From a phage, in sequence record NC_105863.1: a DNA stretch of 41,222 nt. One strand, 5' to 3'. The notes below the pieces were generated by a model, which saw only the letters and a program-made list of their open reading frames with translations, was not told where the DNA came from and did no database searches. Positions 4,454-37,201 of the stretch are shown here, piece after piece (positions within the stretch are counted from its first letter, which is position 1; every line of letters starts with the position of its first letter). The position numbers and the translations under genes were made by a program.

Positions 4454-4914
4454 TGATGGGCTTTTTCAAAGTAACTGACGTACCGTCTCGTCGCGTAGTC
4501 CAGTACGCCCGCGTGTCTGGCTCTGGCGAGAACGTGGTGTTTATTGAAGACGAAAGTGTACTCGGAACACCAGTGGACGATATGCCGTTTGCGGACAAGA
4601 CCGGTATTGCGCTGCCAGCGGCAGGTATGCTTTACGAGATTCCGTACCTGGCGGATGCTGGTGATGTGTATTTCTCCGTACAACCGCAGGACGCTGAACT
4701 GGCAGACGGCAGCGCAAATATCGCTGTCGAAGTTAAGGCGGGCAAAGCACCATATGCGCTGACCTGGTACAAAGACGGGAAGGAAGTGGTAAACGCCCCG
4801 GAAGAGGCTCTGTCTCTGACGGTTAACGCAGTTGGTGAATACTTCGTTAAAGTCACTGATGCCGATGGTATAGAGGCCGTAAGTAAAGCAGCGAAGGTTA
4901 CTAAGCCAGAATAA
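4453..4914 (+). CDS. Ig-like domain protein (possible head decoration/accessory protein)
   Basis: 153 aa; C-terminal segment YALTWYKDGKEV..GEYFVKVTDADG resembles an Ig-like (I-set/Big) beta-sandwich signature; ATGATG overlap with upstream stop. Confidence 0.4.
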   Translation: MMGFFKVTDVPSRRVVQYARVSGSGENVVFIEDESVLGTPVDDMPFADKTGIALPAAGMLYEIPYLADAGDVYFSVQPQDAELADGSANIAVEVKAGKAPYALTWYKDGKEVVNAPEEALSLTVNAVGEYFVKVTDADGIEAVSKAAKVTKPE

Positions 4915-4918
4915 ACTG

Positions 4919-4941
4919 AAGCCCCGAAAGGGGCTTTTTAG
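4919..4941 (+). terminator. rho-independent terminator (GCCCCGAAAGGGGC + TTTTTA)
   Basis: GC-rich hairpin immediately after stop of 4453-4914 ORF followed by T-run. Confidence 0.6.
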
Positions 4942-4989
4942 TGCCTGTGATTATTCCAGTTATTCCACTCAATTGTAAATGTTGTAATA

Positions 4990-5005
4990 AACTATTCGAA
5001 TAGTT
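4990..5005. promoter_or_regulatory. perfect 16-bp palindrome AACTATTCGAATAGTT abutting a -35 element (candidate operator)
   Basis: Sequence equals its own reverse complement; half-site AACTAT/ATAGTT recurs at early promoters (26455, 30162, 32269). Confidence 0.4.
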
Positions 5006-5032
5006 GACTTTTCACCAAAAATGTGCTAAGCT
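5004..5032 (+). promoter_or_regulatory. sigma70-like promoter (TTGACT -17- TAAGCT with extended -10 TG)
   Basis: -35 TTGACT 5004-5009, 17-bp spacer, TGcTAAGCT at 5024-5032; located in 340-bp noncoding gap upstream of spanin genes. Confidence 0.45.
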
Positions 5033-5256
5033 CCACCTGAGCTTGTGAAGTATGAACAAGCGACCGCGGCGCGGGCAGGTAACGGAGCGGGACGTAAGTC
5101 CTGAGTGTAGTTACGCTGACGCGTTCGGAAGGGCCATACTCTATTGCTTGTGTAAAAAGTAACTGGTTTACTGAGATTACGCCGTTTCTATGTTTAAATG
5201 ATAAGGTCTAGCGCCCCGCTTTAAGGCGGGGCTTTACTTATCGAGAAAGGGGAAAC

Positions 5257-5643
5257 ATGAATCTTAAAGCAACTGTCGTAGCGGGAGCATGTTTCATCAT
5301 CCTGGCTTACGCACACGGCATCTACCAGTATCGCAGCGGCTGGAACGGAGGCCGGGCGAATCTCGTTTCGCAGCAACAGCAGAAAGCACAGGCTGAGTTA
5401 GCTAAGAAAACACAACGGCAGCAGCAGGATGAATCGAAGGCCGCCGCCGCTGATAACGAAGGCAAGACGAAATCAGAGGTAATCACCCGTGAAGTCGTTA
5501 AGTACATTAAAACGCCTGGCCGCAGTGTGTGCACTTTTGACCCTGAGCGCGTGCAGCTCAAGTCCCGCGCCGTCGCAAACGCCAATTCCATCCCCGGATA
5601 CGACGATGATGCAGCCGCCGTGCAAACTGGCACTGCCAAGTAA
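5257..5643 (+). CDS. i-spanin (Rz-like inner-membrane spanin subunit)
   Basis: 128 aa; N-terminal TM helix (VVAGACFIILAYAHGIY) followed by Gln/Ala/Lys-rich predicted coiled coil; RBS AGAAAGGGGA; overlaps a lipoprotein ORF in another frame. Confidence 0.65.
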   Translation: MNLKATVVAGACFIILAYAHGIYQYRSGWNGGRANLVSQQQQKAQAELAKKTQRQQQDESKAAAADNEGKTKSEVITREVVKYIKTPGRSVCTFDPERVQLKSRAVANANSIPGYDDDAAAVQTGTAK

Positions 5644-5752
5644 CGACGCGGACGAGGATTTAGCTATTGACGTCCAGAACACAGAATGTGTACGGCAACT
5701 GAGACTTAAAGTGTTCATGTTGCGGGATTACGTGAGGAATATTCTGGAATAG
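5489..5752 (+). CDS. o-spanin (Rz1-like outer-membrane lipoprotein)
   Basis: 87 aa; GTG start with RBS AGAGG; signal peptide ending in lipobox LTLSAC; Pro-rich mature part (SSSPAPSQTPIPSPDTT) with Cys residues; starts inside i-spanin gene in +1 frame and extends past its stop. Confidence 0.7.
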   Translation: MKSLSTLKRLAAVCALLTLSACSSSPAPSQTPIPSPDTTMMQPPCKLALPSNDADEDLAIDVQNTECVRQLRLKVFMLRDYVRNILE

Positions 5753-5831
5753 TTGCCTTGTATGTTGGAATAATTTATTCTTGACATGTAAATCCGGGTG
5801 GCCCGGATTCCAACGTCCAGGGGACATACTG

Positions 5832-6458
5832 ATGAGCGAAGAAGTGAAAGACGAAACTATCGAACAACAAGAGACTAAGACCACGTTTACCAAAGAAGAA
5901 GTTGACGCGCTGGTATCCGGTCTTAAAGCTAACAACGAGAAACTCTTGTCTGAAAAGAAAGCTGCCGCCGCTGCCGCGAAAGAAGCCGCAGATGCGAAGC
6001 TGAAAGCCGAACAGGAACGCGCAAAACAGAACGGCGAACTTGAGGCATTCGAGAAAACGTTGCGCAGTCAGTATGAGCCAGTACTCGCCGATAAAGACGG
6101 TAAGATTAGCAAAATGGCTGAGCGTATCCTCGGCGCGGAACGTAAATCAGTTATCAGCCAGTTGTCTGGAATGTTGATTGATGAGAGCGCAGCGGATATT
6201 ATCGCTATGATGGTCAAGACCGAATTTGACGGCGATGACGTTGTGACCAAGTTCACAGGTGCAGACGGTAATGTCATCACCACCGACGCAGAGCAATTTA
6301 AAAAGTATCTGCGTGAGCACAAAGCATTTTCGCATCTGATTAAAGCAGATGCAGCAACCGGCGGCGGGGCTTCCGGTAACAAAAATTCTACTGGCGGGGC
6401 CGGTGGTGCGGACGTAATCCAGCAAAAACTTAACGCCAAATACGGCAAACGAGGATAA
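5832..6458 (+). CDS. scaffolding protein
   Basis: Ala/Glu/Lys-rich, predicted coiled-coil ORF directly upstream of major capsid gene; likely start ATG 5832 (MSEEVKDE) with RBS; ORF track start 5781. Confidence 0.55.
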   Translation: MSEEVKDETIEQQETKTTFTKEEVDALVSGLKANNEKLLSEKKAAAAAAKEAADAKLKAEQERAKQNGELEAFEKTLRSQYEPVLADKDGKISKMAERILGAERKSVISQLSGMLIDESAADIIAMMVKTEFDGDDVVTKFTGADGNVITTDAEQFKKYLREHKAFSHLIKADAATGGGASGNKNSTGGAGGADVIQQKLNAKYGKRG

Positions 6459-9636: not shown

Positions 9637-10049
9637 TGGGCTACTTTGAGGACTTAACAAAAGCGTTCGATGTTCCGCTGGTAGCCTTCGGAACCGCCAA
9701 CGGCATCAAGGTCGCGCTTGAAAACATCGACGCGCCGACGTCAACCGATACGCCATATCTGGCAAGTTACATGTTACTGGCGGATACCGAGCAAGCAGAT
9801 TTGTTCTTCACGGAACAACGCGCGGGTGTTTATCAGGTCGACATTAACTACGCATCGGTGAAAGGTAGCGCGCCAATCAATAAAATGGCAGACTTACTTA
9901 ACACGGCATTCAAAGCAGGTAAGTCATTTTCTCGTAACGACATCTGCGCCGAGGTTCAATCGGTTAGCCTGGGGCCGCTGATTGTAGAAAACGGATGGGC
10001 CAAACGACCATTGTCAATTAACTTTATTGCATTCACCAAGAGGCTGTGA
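9633..10049 (+). CDS. tail-associated structural protein (putative tail terminator/completion)
   Basis: 138-aa ORF immediately upstream of major tail gene. Confidence 0.35.
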   Translation: MMGYFEDLTKAFDVPLVAFGTANGIKVALENIDAPTSTDTPYLASYMLLADTEQADLFFTEQRAGVYQVDINYASVKGSAPINKMADLLNTAFKAGKSFSRNDICAEVQSVSLGPLIVENGWAKRPLSINFIAFTKRL

Positions 10050-10051
10050 AT

Positions 10052-11218
10052 ATGGCTACAACTCCTTTTAAGGGCGCGAATACCGCGCAATTCTATGTGG
10101 CGGAAGTCACCCCGGGCGTAACACCGACTAACCCGGTCTGGTCACCGTTGCGTAACACTGGCGGTGTTCCTGCTATCACCCGCGACACGCTGACCTCCAA
10201 CGAACTGGACGGCAGCCGTGAAACTACATCCATCCGCACCGGTAACAAACAGGTTAGCGGTGAATACGCGATCGAGCTTAGCTCGAAAAGCCAGGATGAC
10301 TGGCTGGCTGGTGCTTTAGGCTCTACGTGGCAATCCGGTGTTTCCCTGTCCAGTCTGTCGATTACCGTCGCACCGGCGGGCAAGACGTTCACACGCGCTA
10401 CCGGCAGTTTTATCACTGACGGAGTTGGGGTAGGCGACCTGATTGCATTTACCGATTTAACAGGCGATAACGCAAAACCATTTATTGTTACTGCAGTAAC
10501 GGCTACGGTTGTTACTGGTGCGGGCATCCAACACACCCTGACCACCGAGACAAAAACTAGTAAGGCTAAAACCGGCGACACGCTGGAAACCGGTAACACG
10601 TGTAAGACGTTCTCTATCCTTACCTGGTACAAAGGCCAGTGCGGCGGTACTGACGCGTACACGTTAACCAAAGGCGTGGAAGTTTCTGGTTTTACCATCG
10701 AACAGGCTGTTAACGCGATGGTAACTGGCAGCTTCCCATTCATCGGTCGCAGTCAGGAGATTCTCACTACGCCGCCGACCGGTTCCAACTTCTCATCTGT
10801 TACTTTTGGTGATGAGCCGTTCTCTTCGGTTGACGTTTCCGTGTTCGATGGCTCTACGCCGTTGCGTTGTGATAGCCTTACCATCACCAACGACAACAGC
10901 GCGTCCGCGCAGTTCGAACTCGGCAACACTAACGTGGCCTTTGTGGAACGTAGCCGCGCGGCTAACACCTTCTCCATCTCCGGCAAGCTGTACGACATGG
11001 CTATGATTCAGAAGTTTATCAACGAGCAACAGGTAGAGATTAACTCTATTCTGGCGGGGGTAAACGGGGCTATGTCTTTCAGTTTGAAACGTGCAGAACT
11101 TACGGCGGTTACACCTGAGATTGGAGGACCTGAGTCAATCACTCAGTCTATTGAAGGCCAGGCTACTGGCAACCAGTACCAGTCGTCTATTGTTATCCAG
11201 CGTATCACCTACGCATAA
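10052..11218 (+). CDS. major tail protein
   Basis: 388 aa from ATG 10052 (RBS AAGAGG); Thr/Ser/Gly-rich; followed by strong bidirectional terminator; position before chaperone/tape-measure genes. Confidence 0.5.
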   Translation: MATTPFKGANTAQFYVAEVTPGVTPTNPVWSPLRNTGGVPAITRDTLTSNELDGSRETTSIRTGNKQVSGEYAIELSSKSQDDWLAGALGSTWQSGVSLSSLSITVAPAGKTFTRATGSFITDGVGVGDLIAFTDLTGDNAKPFIVTAVTATVVTGAGIQHTLTTETKTSKAKTGDTLETGNTCKTFSILTWYKGQCGGTDAYTLTKGVEVSGFTIEQAVNAMVTGSFPFIGRSQEILTTPPTGSNFSSVTFGDEPFSSVDVSVFDGSTPLRCDSLTITNDNSASAQFELGNTNVAFVERSRAANTFSISGKLYDMAMIQKFINEQQVEINSILAGVNGAMSFSLKRAELTAVTPEIGGPESITQSIEGQATGNQYQSSIVIQRITYA

Positions 11219-11220
11219 AA

Positions 11221-11256
11221 CTAAGGCCCCGTTTGGGGCCTTAGTTTTTTTTTTCT
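11221..11256. terminator. bidirectional rho-independent terminator (AAGGCCCCGTTTGGGGCCTT + T11)
   Basis: 8-bp GC stem with T-run on plus strand and AGTTTTAT on minus strand; sits between convergent major tail gene (+) and kinase gene (-). Confidence 0.7.
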
Positions 11257-11810
11257 TACAAACCTAATTTTAAAGCAATGTCTATAACGTTCGATTTAAC
11301 GTCACCCGGTATGATGTAGGTGTCGTAATCTTTTACACCATCAACGCCATACAGATAACCACGGCTGTCCCCCTCAAACGTATAGCCGTCACGATGAAGG
11401 CGAACGATTCGCACGTCATGCCCGACGGCGACGATAGGGGAAACTTCACTGGCGAATCCCCCGTCGGACACTACAAAAACTTCGTTGCCGTCGGGCAATC
11501 TTCCGGCAAGATACTTACCGAAATAATCGTCACCGAATACCGGTTTAATGAATTGCTCAGAAATGGCAATCATGAACTGACGCCGAGACAACCCGTTAAG
11601 GAAACCCTCTGGCTTTTCTTTCCGCGCCCGGTCGTCGTAGCCGTCGAGAAACTCGCGGTAAGCATCCTGGCCTAACGCAGCCATAGCAATATTGAACATC
11701 GGATTCTTGAAACTGGCGACACCCTTCGCAAAGCCCATTTCTACCAGCGCCCTAGCAAGTGTGTCTTTCCCGCAGCCCGCAGGACCATTAAGAATAATTA
11801 CCTTAGCCAT
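11256..11810 (-). CDS. P-loop nucleotide kinase (dNMP-kinase-like)
   Basis: Walker A GPAGCGKDT at N-terminus; 184 aa; last gene of a three-gene minus-strand operon; family assignment from motif only. Confidence 0.55.
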   Translation of the reverse strand: MAKVIILNGPAGCGKDTLARALVEMGFAKGVASFKNPMFNIAMAALGQDAYREFLDGYDDRARKEKPEGFLNGLSRRQFMIAISEQFIKPVFGDDYFGKYLAGRLPDGNEVFVVSDGGFASEVSPIVAVGHDVRIVRLHRDGYTFEGDSRGYLYGVDGVKDYDTYIIPGDVKSNVIDIALKLGL

Positions 11811-12295
11811 TATTTATCACTCCCATGTGGTTTTAAGTGTGTAGAGTTCCCGTTACAGTCGTATTCAGTAACTGCGTGAGTGGTTATGCCGAGTTCGCGG
11901 AAATGCTTTATTACCGCTGGAGAGTCGTCGAATGCACACAAGATTCTCTCCGGCCCAATAGCACGCAACACCTCTTCTTTAATTACGATGTCTTTTCTGT
12001 TGTCGTGTTTGCTGCGCATGATTAACTGATAAAATTCGACGCGGTGGCGCTGCAACCACATTCTGGTTTCTTTTTCCGCGTCATCACTACGGCCTGTTAA
12101 GATAATAACGGCATAGCGACGATTAAGGGCGTTACACAGTTCGATGTTATCTTTAATGGGTGCATCGTCTTTGCACGCCATGTTAAATGGTTTCCACGCC
12201 CAGGTTTCGCCGTAGTTATCTTTCGGCAGCAGGTGTAAACGATGAGTACCATCTGCCAATGTCCCGTCTAAATCGAAAATCACAATATCTTTCAT
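11810..12295 (-). CDS. HAD-superfamily phosphatase (nucleotidase / polynucleotide phosphatase-like)
   Basis: N-terminal HAD motif I IVIFDLDGTL; 161 aa; start overlaps upstream stop. Confidence 0.6.
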   Translation of the reverse strand: MKDIVIFDLDGTLADGTHRLHLLPKDNYGETWAWKPFNMACKDDAPIKDNIELCNALNRRYAVIILTGRSDDAEKETRMWLQRHRVEFYQLIMRSKHDNRKDIVIKEEVLRAIGPERILCAFDDSPAVIKHFRELGITTHAVTEYDCNGNSTHLKPHGSDK

Positions 12296-13422
12296 CCAAG
12301 CATCTCCGGTGAAATAGTTAAACGTGCGACCTCGCCATATTCGGCGCTATAAGTAATTACGTTTGCACTGCGGCCCGACATCCACCCACCGCGGGAGGCA
12401 TATGCATCTTTAGCCGCGAGAGTGCGGTGTTGCTCAACAATCATGTTACGGCTTTCTACAATCTTTTGGTGGTGCAGGTGACCCACGTGGGCGTAGCTGT
12501 AAACACTCTCGCCGAACGCTTTGCGGAACTTGGCGATCATAACCGGTTCGATAGCATCGAAGCGTGCTTTATGGCCGTGGTGAAAGAACAGCGTAGTTTT
12601 GCCGTGTTGCACCATCTTGTAAACATCCGGCGACGTATCGACGAACACACGCGGCTCATTGTCGTACAGCGTACTAAACATCTCAGCTAACCAAATCATT
12701 CCGCTTTCGTCGTGGTTACCTTGCACGATAAGCAAGCGAACATTTTTATGTTTAACGAGAGCCATATCAATGACACGGCGGACCATACGAATCATGTAGC
12801 GTACAAGTTTCTGATAGCGGGTGTCAGCGTCAAGAACATGACCACTGGCAGGTGTAACGGCGTCCAGACTATCGAAATGCGCAAGGTCGCCCAGCAGATT
12901 AATAACTCCTGTTCCGGCATCCGGTGCTTTCTGGAACGCTGCGTCGAACCAGCGGGAGAACAGGTCTTCCGCAATCTTCATGTCCCAGTCGTCGCCGCTC
13001 TCGTCAGCCCAGGCCAGCATACCGAGATGGAAATCAGACACAGTGTAAAGGTTGAGTAGCTTGTCGTCTCGTTTGGCGCGAACGGCTTTAACAGGTGCAA
13101 CTGGTGTAATCTCCGACTTCATGCCTTCGATTACGGCTTTCATCAATTCAACCTGACGTTCGGCATCGGTGTCGGTCTTAACCCATTGCAACTTGGTGTT
13201 GCCAAACTCATCCACCAGTGATGACGTTCCTTTAATCTTGTAGCCGTCCGGTACAAGGTAACTAACGTCACGCCCGTGGCCTACACCTTTCTTAGCCAGC
13301 TTCGCTTTACGGATACGAATAACGCGGTCGGAGATGCCGTATTTACGGGCGATGTCGATATTCTTCATACCGGCGTTCAATTCTTCCTGTAACTGTTCGT
13401 CGGTTATTTTCTTCCTGGCCAT
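12292..13422 (-). CDS. calcineurin-like metallophosphoesterase with N-terminal HTH-like domain
   Basis: Motifs SDFHLG, LGDLAHFD, QGNHDE, FFHHGH, VGHLHH match metallophosphoesterase motifs I-V; N-terminal 60 aa resemble an HTH (KYGISDRVIRIRKAKL). Confidence 0.6.
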   Translation of the reverse strand: MARKKITDEQLQEELNAGMKNIDIARKYGISDRVIRIRKAKLAKKGVGHGRDVSYLVPDGYKIKGTSSLVDEFGNTKLQWVKTDTDAERQVELMKAVIEGMKSEITPVAPVKAVRAKRDDKLLNLYTVSDFHLGMLAWADESGDDWDMKIAEDLFSRWFDAAFQKAPDAGTGVINLLGDLAHFDSLDAVTPASGHVLDADTRYQKLVRYMIRMVRRVIDMALVKHKNVRLLIVQGNHDESGMIWLAEMFSTLYDNEPRVFVDTSPDVYKMVQHGKTTLFFHHGHKARFDAIEPVMIAKFRKAFGESVYSYAHVGHLHHQKIVESRNMIVEQHRTLAAKDAYASRGGWMSGRSANVITYSAEYGEVARLTISPEMLG

Positions 13423-13459
13423 GCTTATTCCTCGTGTTTAGGATTTGGCCTATACTAGC

Positions 13460-13651
13460 TCACTTCTCTTTGACATTCGAGTTGCACGCCCAGATTAAGA
13501 TAAATACCCACGGCAGCAGAATCCAGCCAAGAAACAGGTTAGCCATGAATATCGCTAACTTCGCTTTATGGCTACGCATATGGGCCACTAAAAACGGGAT
13601 AAAATAAACTAAAACGATAATAATTAAGAAGAACATAGTAATACCTGTCAT
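13460..13651 (-). CDS. small two-TM membrane protein
   Basis: 63 aa, two hydrophobic helices (FFLIIIVLVYFIPFLVA; LFLGWILLPWVFILIWA); first ORF downstream of the minus-strand promoter at 13686-13722. Confidence 0.4.
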   Translation of the reverse strand: MTGITMFFLIIIVLVYFIPFLVAHMRSHKAKLAIFMANLFLGWILLPWVFILIWACNSNVKEK

Positions 13652-13685
13652 GGTGTAGTTCCTGTTTGAGTTAACATTGTTGGTG

Positions 13686-13722
13686 TAAGTGAATAGTATC
13701 CTATTATGTTGGGGTGTGCAAG
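13686..13722 (-). promoter_or_regulatory. sigma70-like promoter (TTGCAC -17- TACTAT), inverted duplicate of 35824-35860
   Basis: Reverse complement of 13686-13722 is identical over 37 bp to 35824-35860; reads TTGCAC, 17-bp spacer, TACTAT on minus strand, upstream of minus-strand ORFs 13651 down to 11256. Confidence 0.5.
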
Positions 13723-13828
13723 TAATGTGTTAGAATTATTTTGCGCCTAGTGTCGCACACGAAAAGCGGGTGGTTCCCGCCTGGCGCATTAACCTTAACC
13801 AGTAACCTCTTAACCAAAGGATTAAATA

Positions 13829-14245
13829 ATGAAACTTTCTGATTTTTATTACGAAGCTGAGGCCGAAAAAGGCGCGCGTATGCCGATCCCCCTGAAAGAT
13901 GGTACGGACTCAGGGGAATGGCTTAATGTTGTTTCTCCTGAGGCAGACGTTGCCGTTAAGGCCATGCGAGCATTTACGCTGGCGTACCGGGCGGCGTTAG
14001 GCAGACTGAAACAGCTTCGTGATAAATGCGAAGAGACGAAAGATTTCTCGGAATACAACATTAAGATGGAAGACGCAGCGACGGACCTTAACCGCCAGTT
14101 AGCACTTGAACTGGTTAACGGTTGGAGTCTCGACGATGAATTTAATAAAGAGAACTTGAATACTCTTTTCTCACAGTATAAACGACTCGCCGAACACGTT
14201 GTTGTTTTCCATAATGGACAGCTTCGCCAATTGCAGGAAAAGTAG
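13829..14245 (+). CDS. tail assembly chaperone (G-like)
   Basis: 138-aa acidic ORF immediately upstream of tape measure gene with overlapping downstream ORF in -1 frame. Confidence 0.55.
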   Translation: MKLSDFYYEAEAEKGARMPIPLKDGTDSGEWLNVVSPEADVAVKAMRAFTLAYRAALGRLKQLRDKCEETKDFSEYNIKMEDAATDLNRQLALELVNGWSLDDEFNKENLNTLFSQYKRLAEHVVVFHNGQLRQLQEK

Positions 14246-14250
14246 ACGCG

Positions 14251-14610
14251 TTGCTCCAGTTCGCCCGTTGGAACTTCATAACCCGCCACAAACGGCGGGA
14301 ATTTGACAGTATTGCCGATGGGCATAAAGCTGCGCTAATTGCTATGGGGGTTATGCAAGACGCGCCGGAAGCAACGCAGGACGCCGGGCCAGAATGCCCC
14401 CCTGAGCTACTAACCACCTTCGAGAAGTACCGGGAAATCAAATTTACCCGCCGAGTGGATGACGACGGCATCAAGATGTACCCGCGCGAACAGTTACGAT
14501 GGTCGGATTTAGTGGCGTACAGCACCGTTTCAGGCCAGAATATAGGCATGTTTGAATCTGACATCATCATGAGCTTAGACGCTATTTTCGAGGGTAGAAA
14601 CGATGGCTGA
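14251..14610 (+). CDS. tail assembly chaperone second ORF (T-like; possible -1 frameshift extension or separate TTG-start gene)
   Basis: -1 frame is open from 14215, overlapping end of 13829-14245 ORF; TTG at 14251 preceded by AGGAAAAG; ends with ATGA-type overlap on tape measure start. Confidence 0.4.
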   Translation: MLQFARWNFITRHKRREFDSIADGHKAALIAMGVMQDAPEATQDAGPECPPELLTTFEKYREIKFTRRVDDDGIKMYPREQLRWSDLVAYSTVSGQNIGMFESDIIMSLDAIFEGRNDG

Positions 14611-20874: not shown

Positions 20875-23829
20875 ATGTCAAGCGGATGCGGTGACGTTTT
20901 AAGCCTGGCGGATTTACAAACCGCCAAGAAACATCAGATTTTCGAGGCCGAGGTTATCACTGGCAAATCCGGCGGTGTCGCCGGTGGTGCCGATATTGAT
21001 TACGCGACAAATCAGGTTACTGGACAGACCCAGAAGACGTTACCTGCCGTGTTGCGTGATGCTGGTTTTAAACTGGCAGATTTTGATTTCACGTCAGGCG
21101 GTACACTATCCGCTAACGACCGAAACACCGCAGTTTTGTGGCCGTCGTCCTCTGGCGGTGACGGGGATTGGTACTATTGGTTGGGTGCTCTACCAAAAAT
21201 TATCCCAGCGTCATCCTCCCCGCAGTCCACCGGTGGCGTGGCAGATGGGGCGTGGCAGCCTGTCGGGTCGGTCATACTGCGGCAGCAAATATCTGATGTA
21301 AACGGTGCAATTCTGTACCCAGATTTACATGTGGCGCGATGGAAGGACGAATACGACCCGCGCGCATGGGGCGCCGTGGGCGACGGCGTAACTGATGATA
21401 CTCAATCTATTTTTAATGTATTAGCAGCTTCCCCCAACAATTGGATTATAGACGGCAGGGGTTTGACTTATAAAGTTTCCCAATTACCTGACATTAGTAA
21501 ATTTAAGAATGCTGCATTCGTTTACGAGCGCGTAGCCGGGCAACCGCTTACTTATGTAGCTGATGGCTTCTTTAACGGCTCACTAACTAAGGTGACGGAT
21601 ACCCCGTTCTACAACGCATGGACGCAGGATAAAACTTTCGTCTACGACCATGTTATTTACGCCCCGTTTATGGCGGGCGAACGACATGGTGTTCAAAACT
21701 TACATGTAGCTTGGGTTCGCTCTGGAGACGACGGGCAGACTTGGTCAATGCCTGAGTGGTTGACTCCAATCCATGCTGACTATAATGCTAGTGTTTCTAC
21801 GAACAGAGTTAACTACCACTGCATGAGCATGGGTACGTGCGGCAACCGATTATATGCAGTTATAGAAACCCGCTACTTATCTAATATGCGGATGAAGAAG
21901 GCAGAACTTTGGTCACGCCCAATGCCGTATTTTAGACACCCAACCGGCGGAATAACTATTAGTTCTGGCTCCACTACTGCTACCATTGTTATAGAAAATC
22001 ATGGCCTAAAAGCAGGAGATGCGGTTAACTTCTCTAATACATCGGCAACTGGCGTATCGGGTAATATGACGGTTGCGTCTATAATTAACCGAAATACGTT
22101 CACTGTTACGCTCTCAAGCCCTGCGAGTTCCACCATAAACAATGCGGGTGTTACCTGGAACTTCGCAACGCGATTCTGGGACAGCCCGTGGGAAATTACC
22201 GAATTGCCGGGGGTAGCATACTCCACTAACGCTGATTTGTGTGTCACGGAGACACATAGTTTTGCGGTTATAGATGATACTAACTACACTATCGCTGTCG
22301 GCTATCACAACGGCGATGTGTCCCCTCGGCGTCTCGGCGTCTTGTATTTTAGTAACGTGTATGACAATCCAGGCGTATTCGTTCGTCGCACTGTCGCTCA
22401 GGCATACGCTGATAACGCTTCTGAGCCGTGCGTGAAAAGTTATGGAGGTGTGCTCTACCTTACCACACGCGGCACATTACCTACTTCCCCTGGCTCTACA
22501 CTGGCGATGAGCACCGATTCAGGGCAAAACTGGAGCTACTTGCGATTTCCGAACAATGTACATCACTCCAATCTTCCGTTCGCTAAAGTAGGTGACTATC
22601 TCTACATCTTTGGTACAGAACGTGCCTTCGGCGAGTGGGAAGGTGGCGAGCAAGACAGCCGCTATGAAGGTTCGTATCCACGGACCTTTATGTGCAAAGT
22701 TAATGTGTCGTCATGGCCCTCATCTTTAGATGATGTTCAGTGGTTTAATATTACCGACCAAATATACCAGGGTCATATCGTTAACACTGCTGTCGGCGTC
22801 GGCTCGGTCTGTGTTAAAGATGGCTGGTTGTACTATATCTTTGGTGGGGAAGACTTCTTCTCTCCCTGGAGCATCGGGGATAACAGTGCGAAGTTATGGT
22901 ACAAGCATGATGGGCATCCGGCTGACTTATATAGCTACCGGATAAAGATTGAAGGCCACCCGTATGTGTCACGTGATTTCAAATACGGAGCAACTCCTAA
23001 CCGTACACTACCTGTCGCAATGGGTGTAGATGGTGTCCGTCATGTAGAAGCACCTTTGACGTTTGACAATGATATAAGCGTGTACTCCCTGCGTGTAACG
23101 GGGTTGGAATACGATGGCACACAACAGTCTGCCGTGCGTGCACGGTTTGATGGTGATTACGGGCTGATTTCAAAAACAGTCCCGACTAAAACTCCATCGG
23201 GTCAACGACTGATTGTTAGTGGCGGTGATGGCGCATCCAGTTCCGACGGTGCATTGCTGCAACTGTACGGGTCGAACCATGCAACGCCTAACAGGGCTAT
23301 TATGTATGCGTCAGGAGGCTTCTACTCATACGACAATTTCCTTCCTTACTTAGACTCGCAAGTGTCTTTAGGTTCGGCAGGTAATAGGTGGACTACGGTG
23401 TACGCGACCACCGGTACGATAAACACGTCTGATGGTACACTTAAGACGAATAAAGAGGAAATTGAGGGACAACTCCTTACCGCATGGGAGGATATACATG
23501 TAATATCTTTTAAGTGGCTTGAAAGCCTAGCAATCAAGGGTGACACTGCAAGGATACACTTCGGTGTGATAGCCCAAGATGTGCGAGACATCTTGGTCAA
23601 CCATGGGCTTATGGAGAAAGATTCTACCGATTGTAAATATGCTTTCTTGTGCTACGACCCAATTGAAGCTGCGTATGATATTGATGAAGATGGCCAGACT
23701 GTACAAGTATCCCCTCCCGGCGGCAGATGGGGGGTTAGGGCGGACCAGATGTTCTTCATAGAGATTGCCTATCAGCGTAAGAAGATGCGCGAGTTCGAGA
23801 AGAGGCTGGCAGCACTAGAAGATAAATAA
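20875..23829 (+). CDS. tailspike / capsule depolymerase with C-terminal intramolecular chaperone (peptidase S74-like) domain
   Basis: 984 aa; two Asp-box (BNR) motifs SGDDGQTW and STDSGQNW; GAVGDGVTDDT motif typical of beta-helix glycosidases; C-terminal segment from about 23428 (TSDGTLKTNKEEIEGQ..) resembles the auto-cleaving chaperone of endosialidase/tail-fibre proteins. Confidence 0.75.
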   Translation: MSSGCGDVLSLADLQTAKKHQIFEAEVITGKSGGVAGGADIDYATNQVTGQTQKTLPAVLRDAGFKLADFDFTSGGTLSANDRNTAVLWPSSSGGDGDWYYWLGALPKIIPASSSPQSTGGVADGAWQPVGSVILRQQISDVNGAILYPDLHVARWKDEYDPRAWGAVGDGVTDDTQSIFNVLAASPNNWIIDGRGLTYKVSQLPDISKFKNAAFVYERVAGQPLTYVADGFFNGSLTKVTDTPFYNAWTQDKTFVYDHVIYAPFMAGERHGVQNLHVAWVRSGDDGQTWSMPEWLTPIHADYNASVSTNRVNYHCMSMGTCGNRLYAVIETRYLSNMRMKKAELWSRPMPYFRHPTGGITISSGSTTATIVIENHGLKAGDAVNFSNTSATGVSGNMTVASIINRNTFTVTLSSPASSTINNAGVTWNFATRFWDSPWEITELPGVAYSTNADLCVTETHSFAVIDDTNYTIAVGYHNGDVSPRRLGVLYFSNVYDNPGVFVRRTVAQAYADNASEPCVKSYGGVLYLTTRGTLPTSPGSTLAMSTDSGQNWSYLRFPNNVHHSNLPFAKVGDYLYIFGTERAFGEWEGGEQDSRYEGSYPRTFMCKVNVSSWPSSLDDVQWFNITDQIYQGHIVNTAVGVGSVCVKDGWLYYIFGGEDFFSPWSIGDNSAKLWYKHDGHPADLYSYRIKIEGHPYVSRDFKYGATPNRTLPVAMGVDGVRHVEAPLTFDNDISVYSLRVTGLEYDGTQQSAVRARFDGDYGLISKTVPTKTPSGQRLIVSGGDGASSSDGALLQLYGSNHATPNRAIMYASGGFYSYDNFLPYLDSQVSLGSAGNRWTTVYATTGTINTSDGTLKTNKEEIEGQLLTAWEDIHVISFKWLESLAIKGDTARIHFGVIAQDVRDILVNHGLMEKDSTDCKYAFLCYDPIEAAYDIDEDGQTVQVSPPGGRWGVRADQMFFIEIAYQRKKMREFEKRLAALEDK

Positions 23830-23830
23830 A

Positions 23831-23857
23831 ACTAAGGCCCCAAACGGGGCCTTTTCT
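23831..23857 (+). terminator. rho-independent terminator (AAGGCCCCAAACGGGGCCTTTTCT)
   Basis: 8-bp stem hairpin plus T-run directly after tailspike stop. Confidence 0.65.
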
Positions 23858-23995: not shown

Positions 23996-25416
23996 TTCTT
24001 ACCTCTTCTCTTCATATAATTAAGCAATTCTTCCTGGACCGATTTCTTCTCGTCTGTACGCGCGGCAACAACCTCGTCAAGAGTGTCTTTAGCGACTATG
24101 TGATAAAGGAACACCGGGCGCTCGTGGCCAGCCTGTTTCTGGCGGACCGGGCCTATACGCTCGACAACCTGCAAATAGTGCTCAAGATTCCAGCCTTGCG
24201 AAATAAACGCCAGATGATGCCCGCCGTCCTGTAAATTCAAACCATGCCCGGCTGACGCCGGGTGCACGCATAAGATTTCGATTTCGCCACGGTTCCACGC
24301 TTCCATCTGCTTATTACCCTTCGCACCTTTGGCGAACGCCTGCGCCTGCGGGAATCGCTTAAGGATGCGCTCCAGTTCATGCTTAAACTGATAAGCCACA
24401 AGTAACGGTGCGCCCTGTAACTCCTCGACAATGGACTCGAGCGCATCCAGTTTCGTATCGTGCACTTTCTCCCAGTCTTTCGTTGCCTCACCGTCCGGCC
24501 CTGACACATATACGGCGCCGGATGCAATCTGCAAACACTTTGACGTCTTCGCTGCGGCGTTAGCCGCTTCTACTTCCCCGCTCTCCAGTTCCGCGAATAA
24601 CTTCTCCTCCATATCGATGTACGCCTGGCGTGCTTTCTTCGGCAGGTCTATTTCAACCGGTACGATAATCGGCGCTTCGCAACCGAACCACTCGGCAGCG
24701 TCAATCGTGAGACTAATGTCTTTCATCTTCTGATGAATTTCATTATCTGCACCCGGTCGCGCATGATACTCTCGCGCCATCGCCGACTTACCTTTCTGGA
24801 CAGAGTTAAACCATCGGTCGGTGAATGCCGTGTATGAAGAACCGAGGCGCTCGCCTGCGTCGATAAACCAGTTCTGACCCCACAAGTCTTTGAGGCCGTT
24901 CGGTGACGGCGTACCAGTAAGGTTGATGAAACGCTTAACCTTACCGAATGCCACTTTACTAAGCGCCTTTGCCCGCTTGCTGCCACCTGAACGGCTACGG
25001 AAAGATTTCAGTTTCGTGCTTTCATCGGCAACAATAACCGTAAAAGGCCAGTCGTCTTTGCCGTAGTAGTCAATCAGCCACTCGATAACTTCGTAGTTAG
25101 TGCACACCACGTTAGCATCTGACTCCAGCGCCGCGATGCGGCGTTTCTCTGAACCTGTCGCATCTACGACACGCAGGCACGGGAATCGCCATTTCTCTTG
25201 TTCTGCCGGCCATGTACCTGATGCAACGCGCAACGGGGCGAGAATTAACACGCGGTCGTCGTCCGTAAGTTGCCCGTTGCGGAACAGGCGGTTTAAAGTC
25301 CACAGGACGCTGCCAGTCTTCCCGGCGCCCATGCTCGCCCAAATATTACAGCGATGGTGCTGCAACATGAACGAGGTCATGAGCTTCTGGTATTCGCGCC
25401 TTTGAAACTTACTCAT
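23992..25416 (-). CDS. SNF2-family (superfamily 2) DNA helicase
   Basis: Walker A ASMGAGKTGS, DExx-like IVADESTKLK, C-terminal helicase motif VI-like QVVERIGPVRQ; 474 aa. Confidence 0.75.
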   Translation of the reverse strand: MSKFQRREYQKLMTSFMLQHHRCNIWASMGAGKTGSVLWTLNRLFRNGQLTDDDRVLILAPLRVASGTWPAEQEKWRFPCLRVVDATGSEKRRIAALESDANVVCTNYEVIEWLIDYYGKDDWPFTVIVADESTKLKSFRSRSGGSKRAKALSKVAFGKVKRFINLTGTPSPNGLKDLWGQNWFIDAGERLGSSYTAFTDRWFNSVQKGKSAMAREYHARPGADNEIHQKMKDISLTIDAAEWFGCEAPIIVPVEIDLPKKARQAYIDMEEKLFAELESGEVEAANAAAKTSKCLQIASGAVYVSGPDGEATKDWEKVHDTKLDALESIVEELQGAPLLVAYQFKHELERILKRFPQAQAFAKGAKGNKQMEAWNRGEIEILCVHPASAGHGLNLQDGGHHLAFISQGWNLEHYLQVVERIGPVRQKQAGHERPVFLYHIVAKDTLDEVVAARTDEKKSVQEELLNYMKRRGKK

Positions 25417-26233
25417 TTACGGCCCCCATAAACGCCTTTATAAATTCGGCGGCTACTTGCGGGACGATGGCATTGCCGTAACCGCGCAATCGTCCCACTC
25501 TGGCGGGTATCCCATTAGCCAGCGGGAATGCGCCGGGTTCAACCGGCCGGAACTTTCCATCACGGCATCCGAGCCAGTCAGCATCTGACCAGAAGCCGTG
25601 GTGCGGGTTGGTTGACTCGCTTTCAATCCCTGCTCTGTTGAGTAGTCCAGCCTGTCGAATGTTCTGTCCCTCCCGTCCGTGCGAATCACTGTCTCTCCAC
25701 TCCCTCTGAAGTCGTTCGCTGTCGGTGTAGGCCAGTTCGTGCGCGCCAAAGAAGAGTCGTTCTCTTTTGTGCGGTGCGCCGACGCTACAAGCTGGGAGTA
25801 CAGCAAACCCGACGGCGTAGTCTTCTCCTTCCAGGTGAGCTTGTAAATCGCACATCCACGATTTTGCAATTGCTGCCGCAACCTGCTCCCCAAAGATGAC
25901 TGGAGGGCGGCACTCGCTGATGAGGTCGAGGAAGACCGGCGCGAGGTGTCTCGGGTCGAACTGTCCGAGTTGCTTTCCCGCCGCGCTAAACGGTTGGCAA
26001 GGCGGGCTTCCCGTCCAGAGAGGCGCATCTTCCGGAACTCCCGCAAGTCTGAGCGCGAGAGGCCAGCCGCCGATACCCGCGAAAAAATGACACTGGGTGA
26101 ACCCGTCAAGGTCTTCTGGCTTAACTTCGGTAATGCTTCTTTCATCTACAACTCCAAAAGGTATGTGACCCTGTTTTATCAACTCACGCAGCCACGCGGC
26201 TGCGCCTTTATCCCATTCATTGTAATAGTTCAT
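25409..26233 (-). CDS. DNA (cytosine-5)-methyltransferase-like protein, compact
   Basis: Motif I FFAGIGG, motif IV PC dipeptide in [16 protein letters not shown]-like FGEQV, motif VIII-like KRERLFF, C-terminal [11 protein letters not shown]; only 274 aa so the variable/target-recognition region is unusually short. Confidence 0.65.
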
Positions 26234-35824: not shown

Positions 35825-35853
35825 TTGCACACCCCAACATAATAGGATACTAT
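35825..35853 (+). promoter_or_regulatory. sigma70-like promoter (TTGCAC -17- TACTAT), copy of 13686-13722
   Basis: Part of 37-bp exact inverted repeat; about 35 nt upstream of gene 35888. Confidence 0.5.
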
Positions 35854-35887
35854 TCACTTATCGAAACGAGACAGAGGAGTGAGGGTT

Positions 35888-36074: not shown

Positions 36075-36278
36075 GTGATGGAAGAATTATTTGAAGAACT
36101 GAAACATCATGATTTCGAGGAAATATATTTCGTAGCTGAACGCTACGAGGTGCATCTGGCGGACGGTATAACGGTTATTACATCTACCAGCGAGCGAATG
36201 TTAAATAGCTTACGAGCAATACGAACGGCATCGAATCATGATGCTTGTGCCGACGACGCTGAGGGAGGTTGCCGTTAA
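36075..36278 (+). CDS. hypothetical early protein (67 aa, acidic)
   Basis: Tightly follows previous ORF. Confidence 0.4.
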   Translation: MMEELFEELKHHDFEEIYFVAERYEVHLADGITVITSTSERMLNSLRAIRTASNHDACADDAEGGCR

Positions 36279-36481
36279 TGCGAATCCGTATAACTGACCG
36301 CAGGCTTGTCCGTATAACTGACCGCAGGCTTGTCCGTATAACTGACCGCAGGCTTATAGATTTCGGTATCTCGGTAGGTGATGTTTTTCCGGCGTTCAGC
36401 ATCAACCATTATGGTTTTATGATTGAGTACAAAGGGTCGTTATTGTTCGTGTATCGGGATGAATGTGAGGTTCTGGTATGA
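36269..36481 (+). CDS. hypothetical protein with RITDRRLV x3 repeat (coding status uncertain)
   Basis: TTG-start ORF whose N-terminus is encoded by the tandem DNA repeat; supported only by ATGA coupling to the next ORF. Confidence 0.3.
   Translation: MPLMRIRITDRRLVRITDRRLVRITDRRLIDFGISVGDVFPAFSINHYGFMIEYKGSLLFVYRDECEVLV
36286..36355. repeat. tandem direct repeat, 3 copies of 24 bp (CCGTATAACTGACCGCAGGCTTGT)
   Basis: Copies at 36286-36309, 36310-36333 (identical) and 36334-36355 (22/24); both strands stay open across it. Confidence 0.9.
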
Positions 36482-37134: not shown

Positions 37135-37141
37135 AATTTAC

Positions 37142-37170
37142 TTGCACACTAAGATAGAATAGGCTACTAT
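37142..37170 (+). promoter_or_regulatory. sigma70-like promoter (TTGCAC -17- TACTAT), third member of TACTATTCA family
   Basis: Same -35 and -10 hexamers as 35825-35853, with related spacer (AATAGGcTACTATTCA). Confidence 0.5.
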
Positions 37171-37201
37171 TCATTTACACAAACGAGAGGGGAGACAGAA
37201 T

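Follow-up and report, generated by a model that had tools for sequence, protein, structure and literature searches.

Here we present an analysis of a reverse-oriented, four-gene operon embedded in the tail-gene block of a phage genome (sequence record NC_105863.1, of which the whole stretch of 41,222 nucleotides (nt) is referred to as the window), at positions 11,219 to 13,722. Three of its genes encode, in this order, a metallophosphoesterase (MPE) with an N-terminal helix-turn-helix (HTH) domain, a stand-alone HAD phosphatase and a P-loop kinase, and our favored interpretation, held with moderate confidence, is that together they constitute a module for DNA breakdown and nucleotide recycling. 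This analysis assigned the protein families by computation, showed the catalytic motifs to be intact, resolved the structure of the operon and found the trio, as well as MPE-kinase pairs, again in DNA-metabolism neighborhoods. Every component family was already known, the cassette is annotated in dozens of GenBank records of Kagunavirus, and the trio has been remarked upon in Drexlerviridae; what is new is the assignment of the kinase to the T4 gp1 type and not the Pnkp type, the sharing of the trio by three phage families, and the reach of the MPE-kinase adjacency into distant phages.

Megablast of positions 10800-14300 matched 308 phage records, the best of them from Kagunavirus, subfamily Guernseyvirinae, with nucleotide identities of 95% to vB_EcoS_fKuEco01 (hereafter fKuEco01), 94% to K1G and 97% to K1H; by this similarity the phage is placed in Kagunavirus as a K1G-like phage of E. 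coli. The gene order in the complete annotation of fKuEco01 is the same as in the window, and statements below on genes encoded elsewhere in the genome refer to the annotation of this 95%-identical relative. The shared layout runs from terminase, head, neck and tail-tube genes through the reversed cassette to the tail chaperone, tape measure, distal tail and endosialidase tailspike genes, and continues with a leftward replication module, followed by rightward small open reading frames (ORFs), the lysis genes and further small ORFs. The cassette itself is flanked by the major tail gene (10046-11218, plus strand) and by the tail chaperone and tape-measure genes, which start at 13829 (plus strand). 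An earlier reading of the window made from the letters alone (the sequence-only reading) had recognized four minus-strand ORFs in between, all of which are present where it had placed them:

11256-11810, minus strand: P-loop kinase of 184 amino acids (aa), P-loop GPAGCGKDT, a predicted T4 gp1-type (deoxy)nucleoside monophosphate ((d)NMP) kinase
11810-12295, minus strand: stand-alone HAD phosphatase of 161 aa, motif DLDGT, predicted to be of Pnkp type
12292-13422, minus strand: HTH-MPE of 376 aa
13460-13651, minus strand: putative Imm-type superinfection-immunity membrane protein of 63 aa, the first gene of the operon

The domain calls of the sequence-only reading, namely a P-loop kinase, a DxDGT HAD phosphatase and a calcineurin-like MPE with an N-terminal HTH, were all supported. 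That reading had further described the three enzymes as the classic end-healing set, with a dNMP kinase plus nucleotide metabolism as an alternative. Profile and structure searches favored the alternative: the HAD protein is indeed a Pnkp-type 3'-phosphatase by family, but the kinase falls in phrog_139 with 1DEK as its best fold match and thus belongs to the gp1 type, while the MPE looks nuclease-like, although the phosphodiesterase Rv0805 ranked first among its structural matches.

Assignment of the kinase to the T4 gp1 family, with dNMP kinase activity predicted and a Pnkp-type polynucleotide kinase disfavored, draws on both sequence profiles and a structural model. Residues 1-165 matched phrog_139, "deoxynucleoside monophosphate kinase", at 5.7e-46 over profile positions 82-243, and T4 gp1, taken from the T4 record, matched the same profile at 1.8e-65 over positions 83-261. 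The AlphaFold2 model, built with 28 homologues, reached a pLDDT of 94.6, and its top PDB match in Foldseek was the T4 dNMP kinase 1DEK (1dek_A; E 1.8e-5, TMq 0.65), followed by phosphomevalonate kinase and NMP kinases; T4 Pnkp was not among the top 50 structural matches. Across the 28 homologues 23 residues are invariant, among them G14, K15, D16 and T17 of the P-loop (aa 9-17), and the GKDT signature is shared with T4 gp1, which is likewise phage-encoded and set in DNA metabolism. The T4 protein is longer (241 aa) and only about 19% identical. Searches of Pfam, NCBIfam and the PDB, the last with both the single sequence and a profile, gave weak matches of P-loop type.

The HAD protein matched PF25109 (HAD_PNKP) at 6.7e-20 with 72 bits against a cut-off of 27.6, and phrog_415 at 8e-67; by sequence its matches in the PDB were Pnkp1 (4xrp, 1.7e-6) and T4 Pnkp (5uj0/1ltq). 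Its motifs, D8-x-D10-G-T, T67-G-R69, R100-K101-D102 and D123-D124, are kept without change in its Webervirus and Jedunavirus homologues. By family it is a Pnkp-type 3'-phosphatase domain, and it shares with the phosphatase domains of T4 Pnkp (PseT) and Capnocytophaga Pnkp1 the HAD fold, PF25109 and the motifs DxDxT, (S/T)GR, RKD and DD. Unlike PseT, it stands alone, with no fused Pnkp-type kinase, the adjoining separate kinase being of gp1 type, and it has no RNA ligase partner, as judged from the annotation of the relative and from the window ORFs of at least 250 aa between 22 and 41 kb.

The MPE matched phrog_704 at 3.7e-167. Its diversity was reached by searching representatives of 50%-identity clusters, the initial homologue search having returned only near-identical sequences. 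In the resulting alignment of 40 homologues (33-50% identity) nine motif residues never vary (D130, H132, G178, D179, N236, H237, H282, G314 and H317), while conservation exceeds 90% at H182 and H284 and is at least 90% at H315, yielding the motifs DxH, GD, GNH(D/E), H and GHxH. Conserved catalytic residues, the loss of which had been named as evidence against the original calls, are therefore intact in both the MPE and the HAD protein. Pfam Metallophos matches fell under the curated cut-offs (18.9 against 21.5 and 21.6 against 27), a single-sequence PDB search gave no match and a profile search little better, and NCBIfam had no useful match for the cassette proteins; the fold was confirmed by structure, in an AlphaFold2 model with a pLDDT of 91.9 that is organized as follows:

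aa 8-44 (nt 13291-13401, minus strand): tri-helical HTH
aa 61-104 (nt 13111-13242, minus strand): long beta-hairpin and helix
aa 119-376 (nt 12295-13068, minus strand): binuclear MPE domain

The N-termini of the 40 family members matched Sigma70_r4_2 in eight cases (best 1.5e-9), Fis-type HTH_8 in seven and GerE in four, from which we conclude that the HTH is real. The modeled MPE appears structurally closest to the nucleases PolD-DP1, SbcD and Mre11. It differs from Mre11/SbcD in having no canonical capping domain and no annotated Rad50/SbcC partner, and from DP1 in having no preceding OB fold and no annotated DP2 partner; instead it carries the N-terminal HTH, of sigma-r4/LuxR/Fis type, and the beta-hairpin. 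A Pseudomonas putida MPE needs His81 (D78+3) and His113 (N112+1) to cleave DNA, though not to hydrolyze bis-pNPP (PMC7826289), and by position H182 (D179+3) and H237 (N236+1) of the window MPE would correspond to them. A phage MPE with the same five motifs is gp48 of mycobacteriophage A10ZJ24 (PMC12287305), which differs in having no HTH N-terminal region (its motif I Asp is residue 10) and no HAD or kinase partner; Mycobacterium was not among the ten most frequent host groups in the tblastn search with the window MPE. A lambda-type Ser/Thr protein phosphatase was rejected as an identity for the MPE, which does not show the fold and sequence signature of the PPP family.

The three enzyme genes are tightly packed. 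The stop and start codons overlap as ATGA at the MPE/HAD junction and as TAATG at the HAD/kinase junction, which indicates translational coupling. With GC contents of 0.508 and 0.495, the MPE and kinase genes do not stand out from the window (0.509), whereas the HAD gene (0.451) and the Imm gene (0.391) are lower. The claim that the cassette forms a separate operon was borne out by a promoter and a terminator of its own, listed here with two further copies of the promoter:

11217-11257, both strands: bidirectional intrinsic terminator with a 14-bp stem and a 4-nt loop, serving the major tail gene (plus strand) and the cassette (minus strand)
13686-13721, minus strand: cassette promoter, TTGCAC-17-TACTAT, containing the palindrome AATAG-N4-CTATT at 13692-13705
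35825-35860, plus strand: sister promoter, 36 nt identical to the cassette promoter, driving a rightward operon of small ORFs
37138-37184, plus strand: third, diverged copy (81% over 47 nt), heading an operon that continues into the lysis genes

The promoter copy that the sequence-only reading had noticed is exact (36 of 36 nt), where no match is expected by chance. Because TTGCAC-17 nt-TACTAT shares no more than 7 of 12 positions with the sigma-70 consensus, a simple promoter scan missed it; it is plausibly an imperfect sigma-70 promoter. The label "early" that the sequence-only reading gave to it is tentative, since a promoter of this type also heads the operon leading into the lysis genes. 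For the hairpin at 11217-11248 the folding energy is -23.8 kcal/mol (z -6.6) on the plus strand and -24.3 kcal/mol (z -4.9) on the minus strand; it is followed by 3' tails of T10 and UUUUAU, respectively, and is thus terminator-like and strong on both strands, as the bidirectional terminator first proposed there should be.

The same three genes, in the same order, recur in phages of other families. In Webervirus (Klebsiella phage 13, Drexlerviridae) the MPE-HAD-kinase trio lies just upstream of the holin gene, and in Klebsiella phage RCIP0073 the three proteins are 42%, 49% and about 46% identical to those of the window. The T7-like podovirus ECBP5 of the Autographiviridae (NC_027330, 2840-6106) carries the trio at 53%, 55% and 44% identity, preceded by exonuclease and endonuclease VII genes and followed directly by an ATP-dependent DNA ligase. 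We noted that this row of nuclease, 3'-phosphatase, kinase and ligase recalls a set for healing and sealing DNA ends. The MPE and HAD genes are also adjacent in Jedunavirus MEW1. More distant homologues of the kinase were found on further contigs. One of these, of 74 kb, encodes in succession PolA, dCMP deaminase, a phrog_704 MPE (29% identical to that of the window, E 3e-38), a nucleoside-deoxyribosyltransferase-like protein, the kinase and DNA ligase; on another, which is T7-like, Endo VII and a phrog_221 MPE come before the kinase and a DNA ligase after it; and on a third contig the kinase homologue lies beside a phrog_107 exonuclease. On the strength of shared order and homology, the trio is interpreted as one mobile module common to Guernseyvirinae, Drexlerviridae and Autographiviridae.

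A study of T1-like phages published in 2026 found a "DNA repair exonuclease" to be persistent in 508 of 522 Drexlerviridae, with the slot after it most often filled by a "polynucleotide kinase" and a "dNMP kinase", and independently proposed a role in "nucleotide supply" for these HAD and kinase genes (PMC13164509). That locus resembles the one described here in its three homologous genes, their order, and the combination of a persistent exonuclease with an optional polynucleotide kinase and dNMP kinase. It differs in lying before the holin gene, not reversed inside the tail module, in having no Imm gene and in using another promoter. Literature searches combining Kagunavirus or Drexlerviridae with metallophosphoesterase found nothing.

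The sequence-only reading had considered the HTH fusion on an MPE unusual. It is common: tblastn with the window MPE matched 2,050 phage records out of 50,697, in 1,960 cases over 80% or more of the protein. When 1.8 billion representatives of 50%-identity clusters were searched exhaustively, 4,630 matched at E of at most 0.001. The partners are rarer. At identities of at least 60%, the MPE was found in 467 records, the HAD protein in 71 and the kinase in 52, so the HAD-kinase pair is an optional add-on, present in about 50 records of Kagunavirus. In the two Guernseyvirinae genera examined, Kagunavirus and Jerseyvirus, the locus between the tail-tube and chaperone genes begins with Imm and MPE and is variable thereafter. 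The slot after the MPE holds the HAD and kinase genes in Kagunavirus. In the jersey phage UPWr_S1 of Jerseyvirus (hereafter Jersey) it is filled (at 4681-6196) by an HNH endonuclease, an Ant-like anti-repressor and, between them, a 76-aa ORF similar to the C-terminal end of an ATPase family (phrog_2452 / phrog_17613). SETP7, whose MPE is 88% identical to that of the window, has only the 76-aa ORF in the slot and neither HAD nor kinase; that this ORF might be a kinase remnant was tested and found not to be so. By this comparison the region downstream of the MPE is a hot spot of gene exchange.

These data also allowed us to revise the suggestion that the cassette is a moron-style insertion. Its own promoter and terminator agree with that description, and the HAD-kinase pair does come and go, but a recent moron origin for the whole operon was rejected, as Imm, MPE and the promoter palindrome occupy the same locus in both genera. 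Their retention implies that the operon is an old, integrated feature of the subfamily in which only the HAD-kinase pair behaves as an accessory.

For the module we infer substrates, an order of reactions, the host chromosome as target and a timing of expression. Host RNA polymerase would transcribe the cassette, a conserved auxiliary operon, from its phage-regulated promoter. Imm, at the head of the operon, would block DNA entry by superinfecting phages, excluding competitors. The HTH-tethered binuclear metallo-nuclease, similar to PolD-DP1, SbcD and Mre11, would then cut DNA, most likely the host chromosome; the Pnkp-type HAD phosphatase would clear the 3'-phosphates it leaves, opening the ends to further degradation, and the gp1-type kinase would turn the released dNMPs into dNDPs for phage DNA synthesis. 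In the T4 record, gp1 is the phage dNMP kinase. T7 offers an analogy in gp3/gp6 together with gp1.7. The rationale for a 3'-phosphatase is that MPE nucleases produce mixed 3'-PO4 and 3'-OH ends (PMC7826289). Mycobacteriophage gp48 is reported to be an early MPE nuclease that degrades host DNA and aids phage replication (PMC12287305), and in T4 the dNMPs to which EndoII and EndoIV (denA/denB) degrade host DNA go back into phage DNA (bioRxiv 10.64898/2026.01.15.699771).

Breakdown and salvage are further supported by what the phage does not encode. As the sequence-only reading had stated, no ligase is present in so far as none is annotated in fKuEco01, RNA ligase and RtcB included; for the non-structural half (22-41 kb of the window), each listed ORF of 250 aa or more has an annotated counterpart in that relative. 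ARAGORN found no tRNA genes in the window.

Several observations weigh against this interpretation. The MPE usually occurs without HAD and kinase, as in Tls phages, Dhillonvirus, Vibrio phages and most of Jerseyvirus, and its core role therefore does not need them. It stands alone between HNH and holin genes in Tlsvirus and between lysis genes and the small terminase gene in Dhillonvirus, and is also alone in Vibrio phages and one Aeromonas phage; the frequent position beside lysis or terminase genes would equally fit maturation of phage DNA. Bulk DNA degradation has no obvious need for a sequence-specific HTH. The first-ranked Foldseek match of the MPE model was the class III cNMP phosphodiesterase Rv0805, and the fold does not fix the substrate. 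As for the kinase, hhalign of its family against T4 gp1 aligned 35 columns in the P-loop region at a probability of 66%, and the PDB profile search gave no match to 1DEK; because the direct profile alignment is weak and confined to the P-loop region, membership in the gp1 family rests on the shared PHROG and the fold.

The main rival takes the MPE for a processing nuclease of the phage's own DNA, of Mre11/SbcD or DP1 type, acting in end resection, removal of hairpins or branches, proofreading or concatemer maturation, with the HAD phosphatase healing 3'-phosphate ends on phage DNA and the kinase as an independent accessory of nucleotide metabolism. The near-core status of the MPE, its frequent place beside lysis and terminase genes, and the DNA ligase adjoining the trio in ECBP5 all speak for it. 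No Rad50/SbcC or DP2 partner is annotated, however, and the phage already has a polymerase with a DnaQ-type exonuclease domain as well as Cas4-like and VRR-NUC nucleases; tight translational coupling to a dNMP kinase would also be left unexplained. We regard this account as possible, with a distinctly smaller chance of being right than breakdown and salvage of host DNA.

That the four genes are unrelated accessories sharing a permissive slot and a promoter would agree with the variability of the slot after the MPE, which is filled by HNH, Ant and 76-aa ORFs in Jerseyvirus and by an SH3 protein in Tunavirus (PMC13164509), and with the restriction of the Imm-MPE linkage to Guernseyvirinae. Chance company does not readily account for the same three enzymes in the same order and at comparable divergence in three phage families, for overlapping start and stop codons, or for an MPE-kinase adjacency that recurs in distant phages with a different middle gene, and we consider it unlikely.

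A variant of the breakdown scheme, decidedly unlikely in our estimation, is that the module serves stealth: HAD and kinase would quickly convert danger signals arising from DNA breakdown, such as 5'-dNMPs (e.g. m6-dAMP) and 5'-phosphorylated dinucleotides, and so escape immunity that senses DNA degradation. Host sensors of this kind, Metis/PUA-Cal-HAD and ApeA, use DNA-breakdown products (bioRxiv 10.1101/2025.11.05.686725, 10.64898/2026.01.15.699771, 10.64898/2026.01.26.701840). Metis/PUA-Cal-HAD, like the cassette, joins a calcineurin-like enzyme to a HAD phosphatase acting on nucleotides and is tied to products of host-DNA degradation, but it is a host defense with a PUA sensor that depletes dNTPs, and the resemblance is one of theme only. 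No defense-system match was obtained with the 2023 PADLOC library, which may predate Metis/PUA-Cal-HAD.

The anti-defense role that the sequence-only reading had suggested stays hypothetical. Split Pnkp-style RNA end-healing would have the kinase act on 5'-OH RNA, and the HAD protein, the MPE or both remove 2',3'-cyclic or 3'-phosphates, to repair tRNAs cut by host anticodon nucleases such as PrrC, RloC, ApeA and PARIS. The HAD protein is a true homologue of the Pnkp phosphatase (PF25109; 4xrp, 5uj0, 1ltq), the phosphatase of Clostridium thermocellum Pnkp is itself a calcineurin-type MPE, and Guernseyvirinae are sensitive to the tRNA-cleaving ApeA (bioRxiv 10.64898/2026.01.26.701840). Against this, the kinase is of gp1 type, with Pnkp outside its top 50 structural neighbors; neither RNA ligase nor RtcB appears to be encoded, by the annotation of the relative and the window ORFs; homologues lie in contexts of DNA metabolism and not of RNA repair; and an HTH DNA-binding domain is ill-suited to an RNA substrate. 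The host RtcB pathway, moreover, cannot seal healed 3'-OH/5'-P ends. We judge this explanation highly unlikely. Least likely of all, and very improbable, is that the MPE is a phosphodiesterase destroying the cyclic mono-, di- or oligonucleotides of defense signaling in the manner of Acb1 and Apyc1, with HAD and kinase processing its products, for which the top match to Rv0805 can be cited, phosphodiesterase activity being generic to the fold.

The first gene of the operon had been described as a 63-aa protein with two transmembrane segments (TMs). It is indeed a small two-TM membrane protein, but one that the sequence-only reading did not recognize as Imm-type: it matched PF14373 (Imm_superinfect) at 5.4e-13 with 49.1 bits (cut-off 27.9) and phrog_1039, "immunity to superinfection", at 3.2e-23. 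By homology it is a predicted superinfection-immunity protein of the T4 Imm type. A homologue in phrog_1039 occupies the same position in Jersey, and SETP7 has a 59-aa ORF at the same coordinates.

The palindrome in the cassette promoter points to a wider regulatory pattern. AATAG-N4-CTATT occurs six times in the window, at 13692, 26460, 30167, 32274, 35841 and 37158, against 0.04 expected. Every copy overlaps the -10 or the spacer of a promoter-like element, and all six such elements of the genome are so marked: three, the cassette promoter among them, have the form TTGCAC-17-TACTAT, and the other three, TTGAC(G/A)-17-TATAGT, lie on the minus strand within the replication module. All six sites recur in fKuEco01, and in Jersey and SETP7 there is one ahead of the Imm gene. 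The palindrome is likely to be a shared operator for a phage regulator or, alternatively, the symmetric -10 of bidirectional promoters. We also noted a plus-strand promoter-like site, TTAACA-17-TAGTAT, at 13671-13699, whose -10 overlaps that of the cassette promoter inside the palindrome; Jersey has TTGACG-17-TATTAA in the equivalent place. This arrangement suggests back-to-back overlapping promoters, leftward for the cassette and rightward for the chaperone and tape-measure genes, and the two may be mutually exclusive.

Next to the operon, and outside it, we located a conserved structured element:

13740-13804, plus strand: match to Rfam RF02996 (int-alpA), within the leader that precedes the tail chaperone and tape-measure genes

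The element lies in the divergent intergenic stretch that separates the cassette promoter from the start codon of the tail chaperone gene, and scored 36.9 bits with the covariance model against a gathering score of 35.8; matches in relatives fall under the gathering threshold, though sequence and pairs are kept. The sequence carries no annotation and is present as a single copy in each of 451 phage records, nearly the whole of Guernseyvirinae. An alignment of 10 sequences supports 13 pairs in three helices, with 98.5% of cells paired and compensatory changes in four pairs (none in slid controls), and its G-U wobble pairs are compatible with the plus strand only. Its probable role is that of a leader or regulatory RNA for the tail operon, which has to resume beyond the reversed cassette.

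Three further observations concern the genome at large. The hairpin that terminates the cassette is one of a family of terminator hairpins that have the form GGCCCC-loop-GGGGCC and resemble one another in their flanks, at 4910-4937, 11215-11242 and 23826-23853, of which two (the cassette end and 23826-23853) sit at convergent gene junctions and look bidirectional. A 230-aa ORF (25453-26145, minus strand) is nested in another frame of the same strand within a 274-aa cytosine-methyltransferase gene (25409-26233, minus strand), and fKuEco01 annotates both, as "Mte8-like methyltransferase" and "DNA cytosine methyltransferase". Finally, in the rightward small-ORF region, three tandem copies (100%, 100% and 96% identical) of the 24-nt unit TCCGTATAACTGACCGCAGGCTTG at 36285-36356 begin right after the stop of the ORF at 36075-36278; they could be iterons or binding sites, or encode an 8-aa peptide repeat if the TTG-start ORF at 36269-36481 is real.

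The cassette is thus an ordinary conserved module, already annotated in public records, and not a new system. Its HTH-MPE, however, is among the more widespread uncharacterized phage enzymes: about 4% of sequenced phage genomes gave a tblastn match, nearly all Drexlerviridae have the gene, and the same appears to be true of Guernseyvirinae. That it recurs together with a Pnkp-type 3'-phosphatase and a gp1-type dNMP kinase provides a concrete and cheaply testable hypothesis for its function. If the salvage model is true, K1-specific coliphages that are used therapeutically would degrade host DNA by a route unlike those of T4 and T7, which would also bear on their sensitivity to the newly found defenses that sense nucleotides from DNA breakdown.

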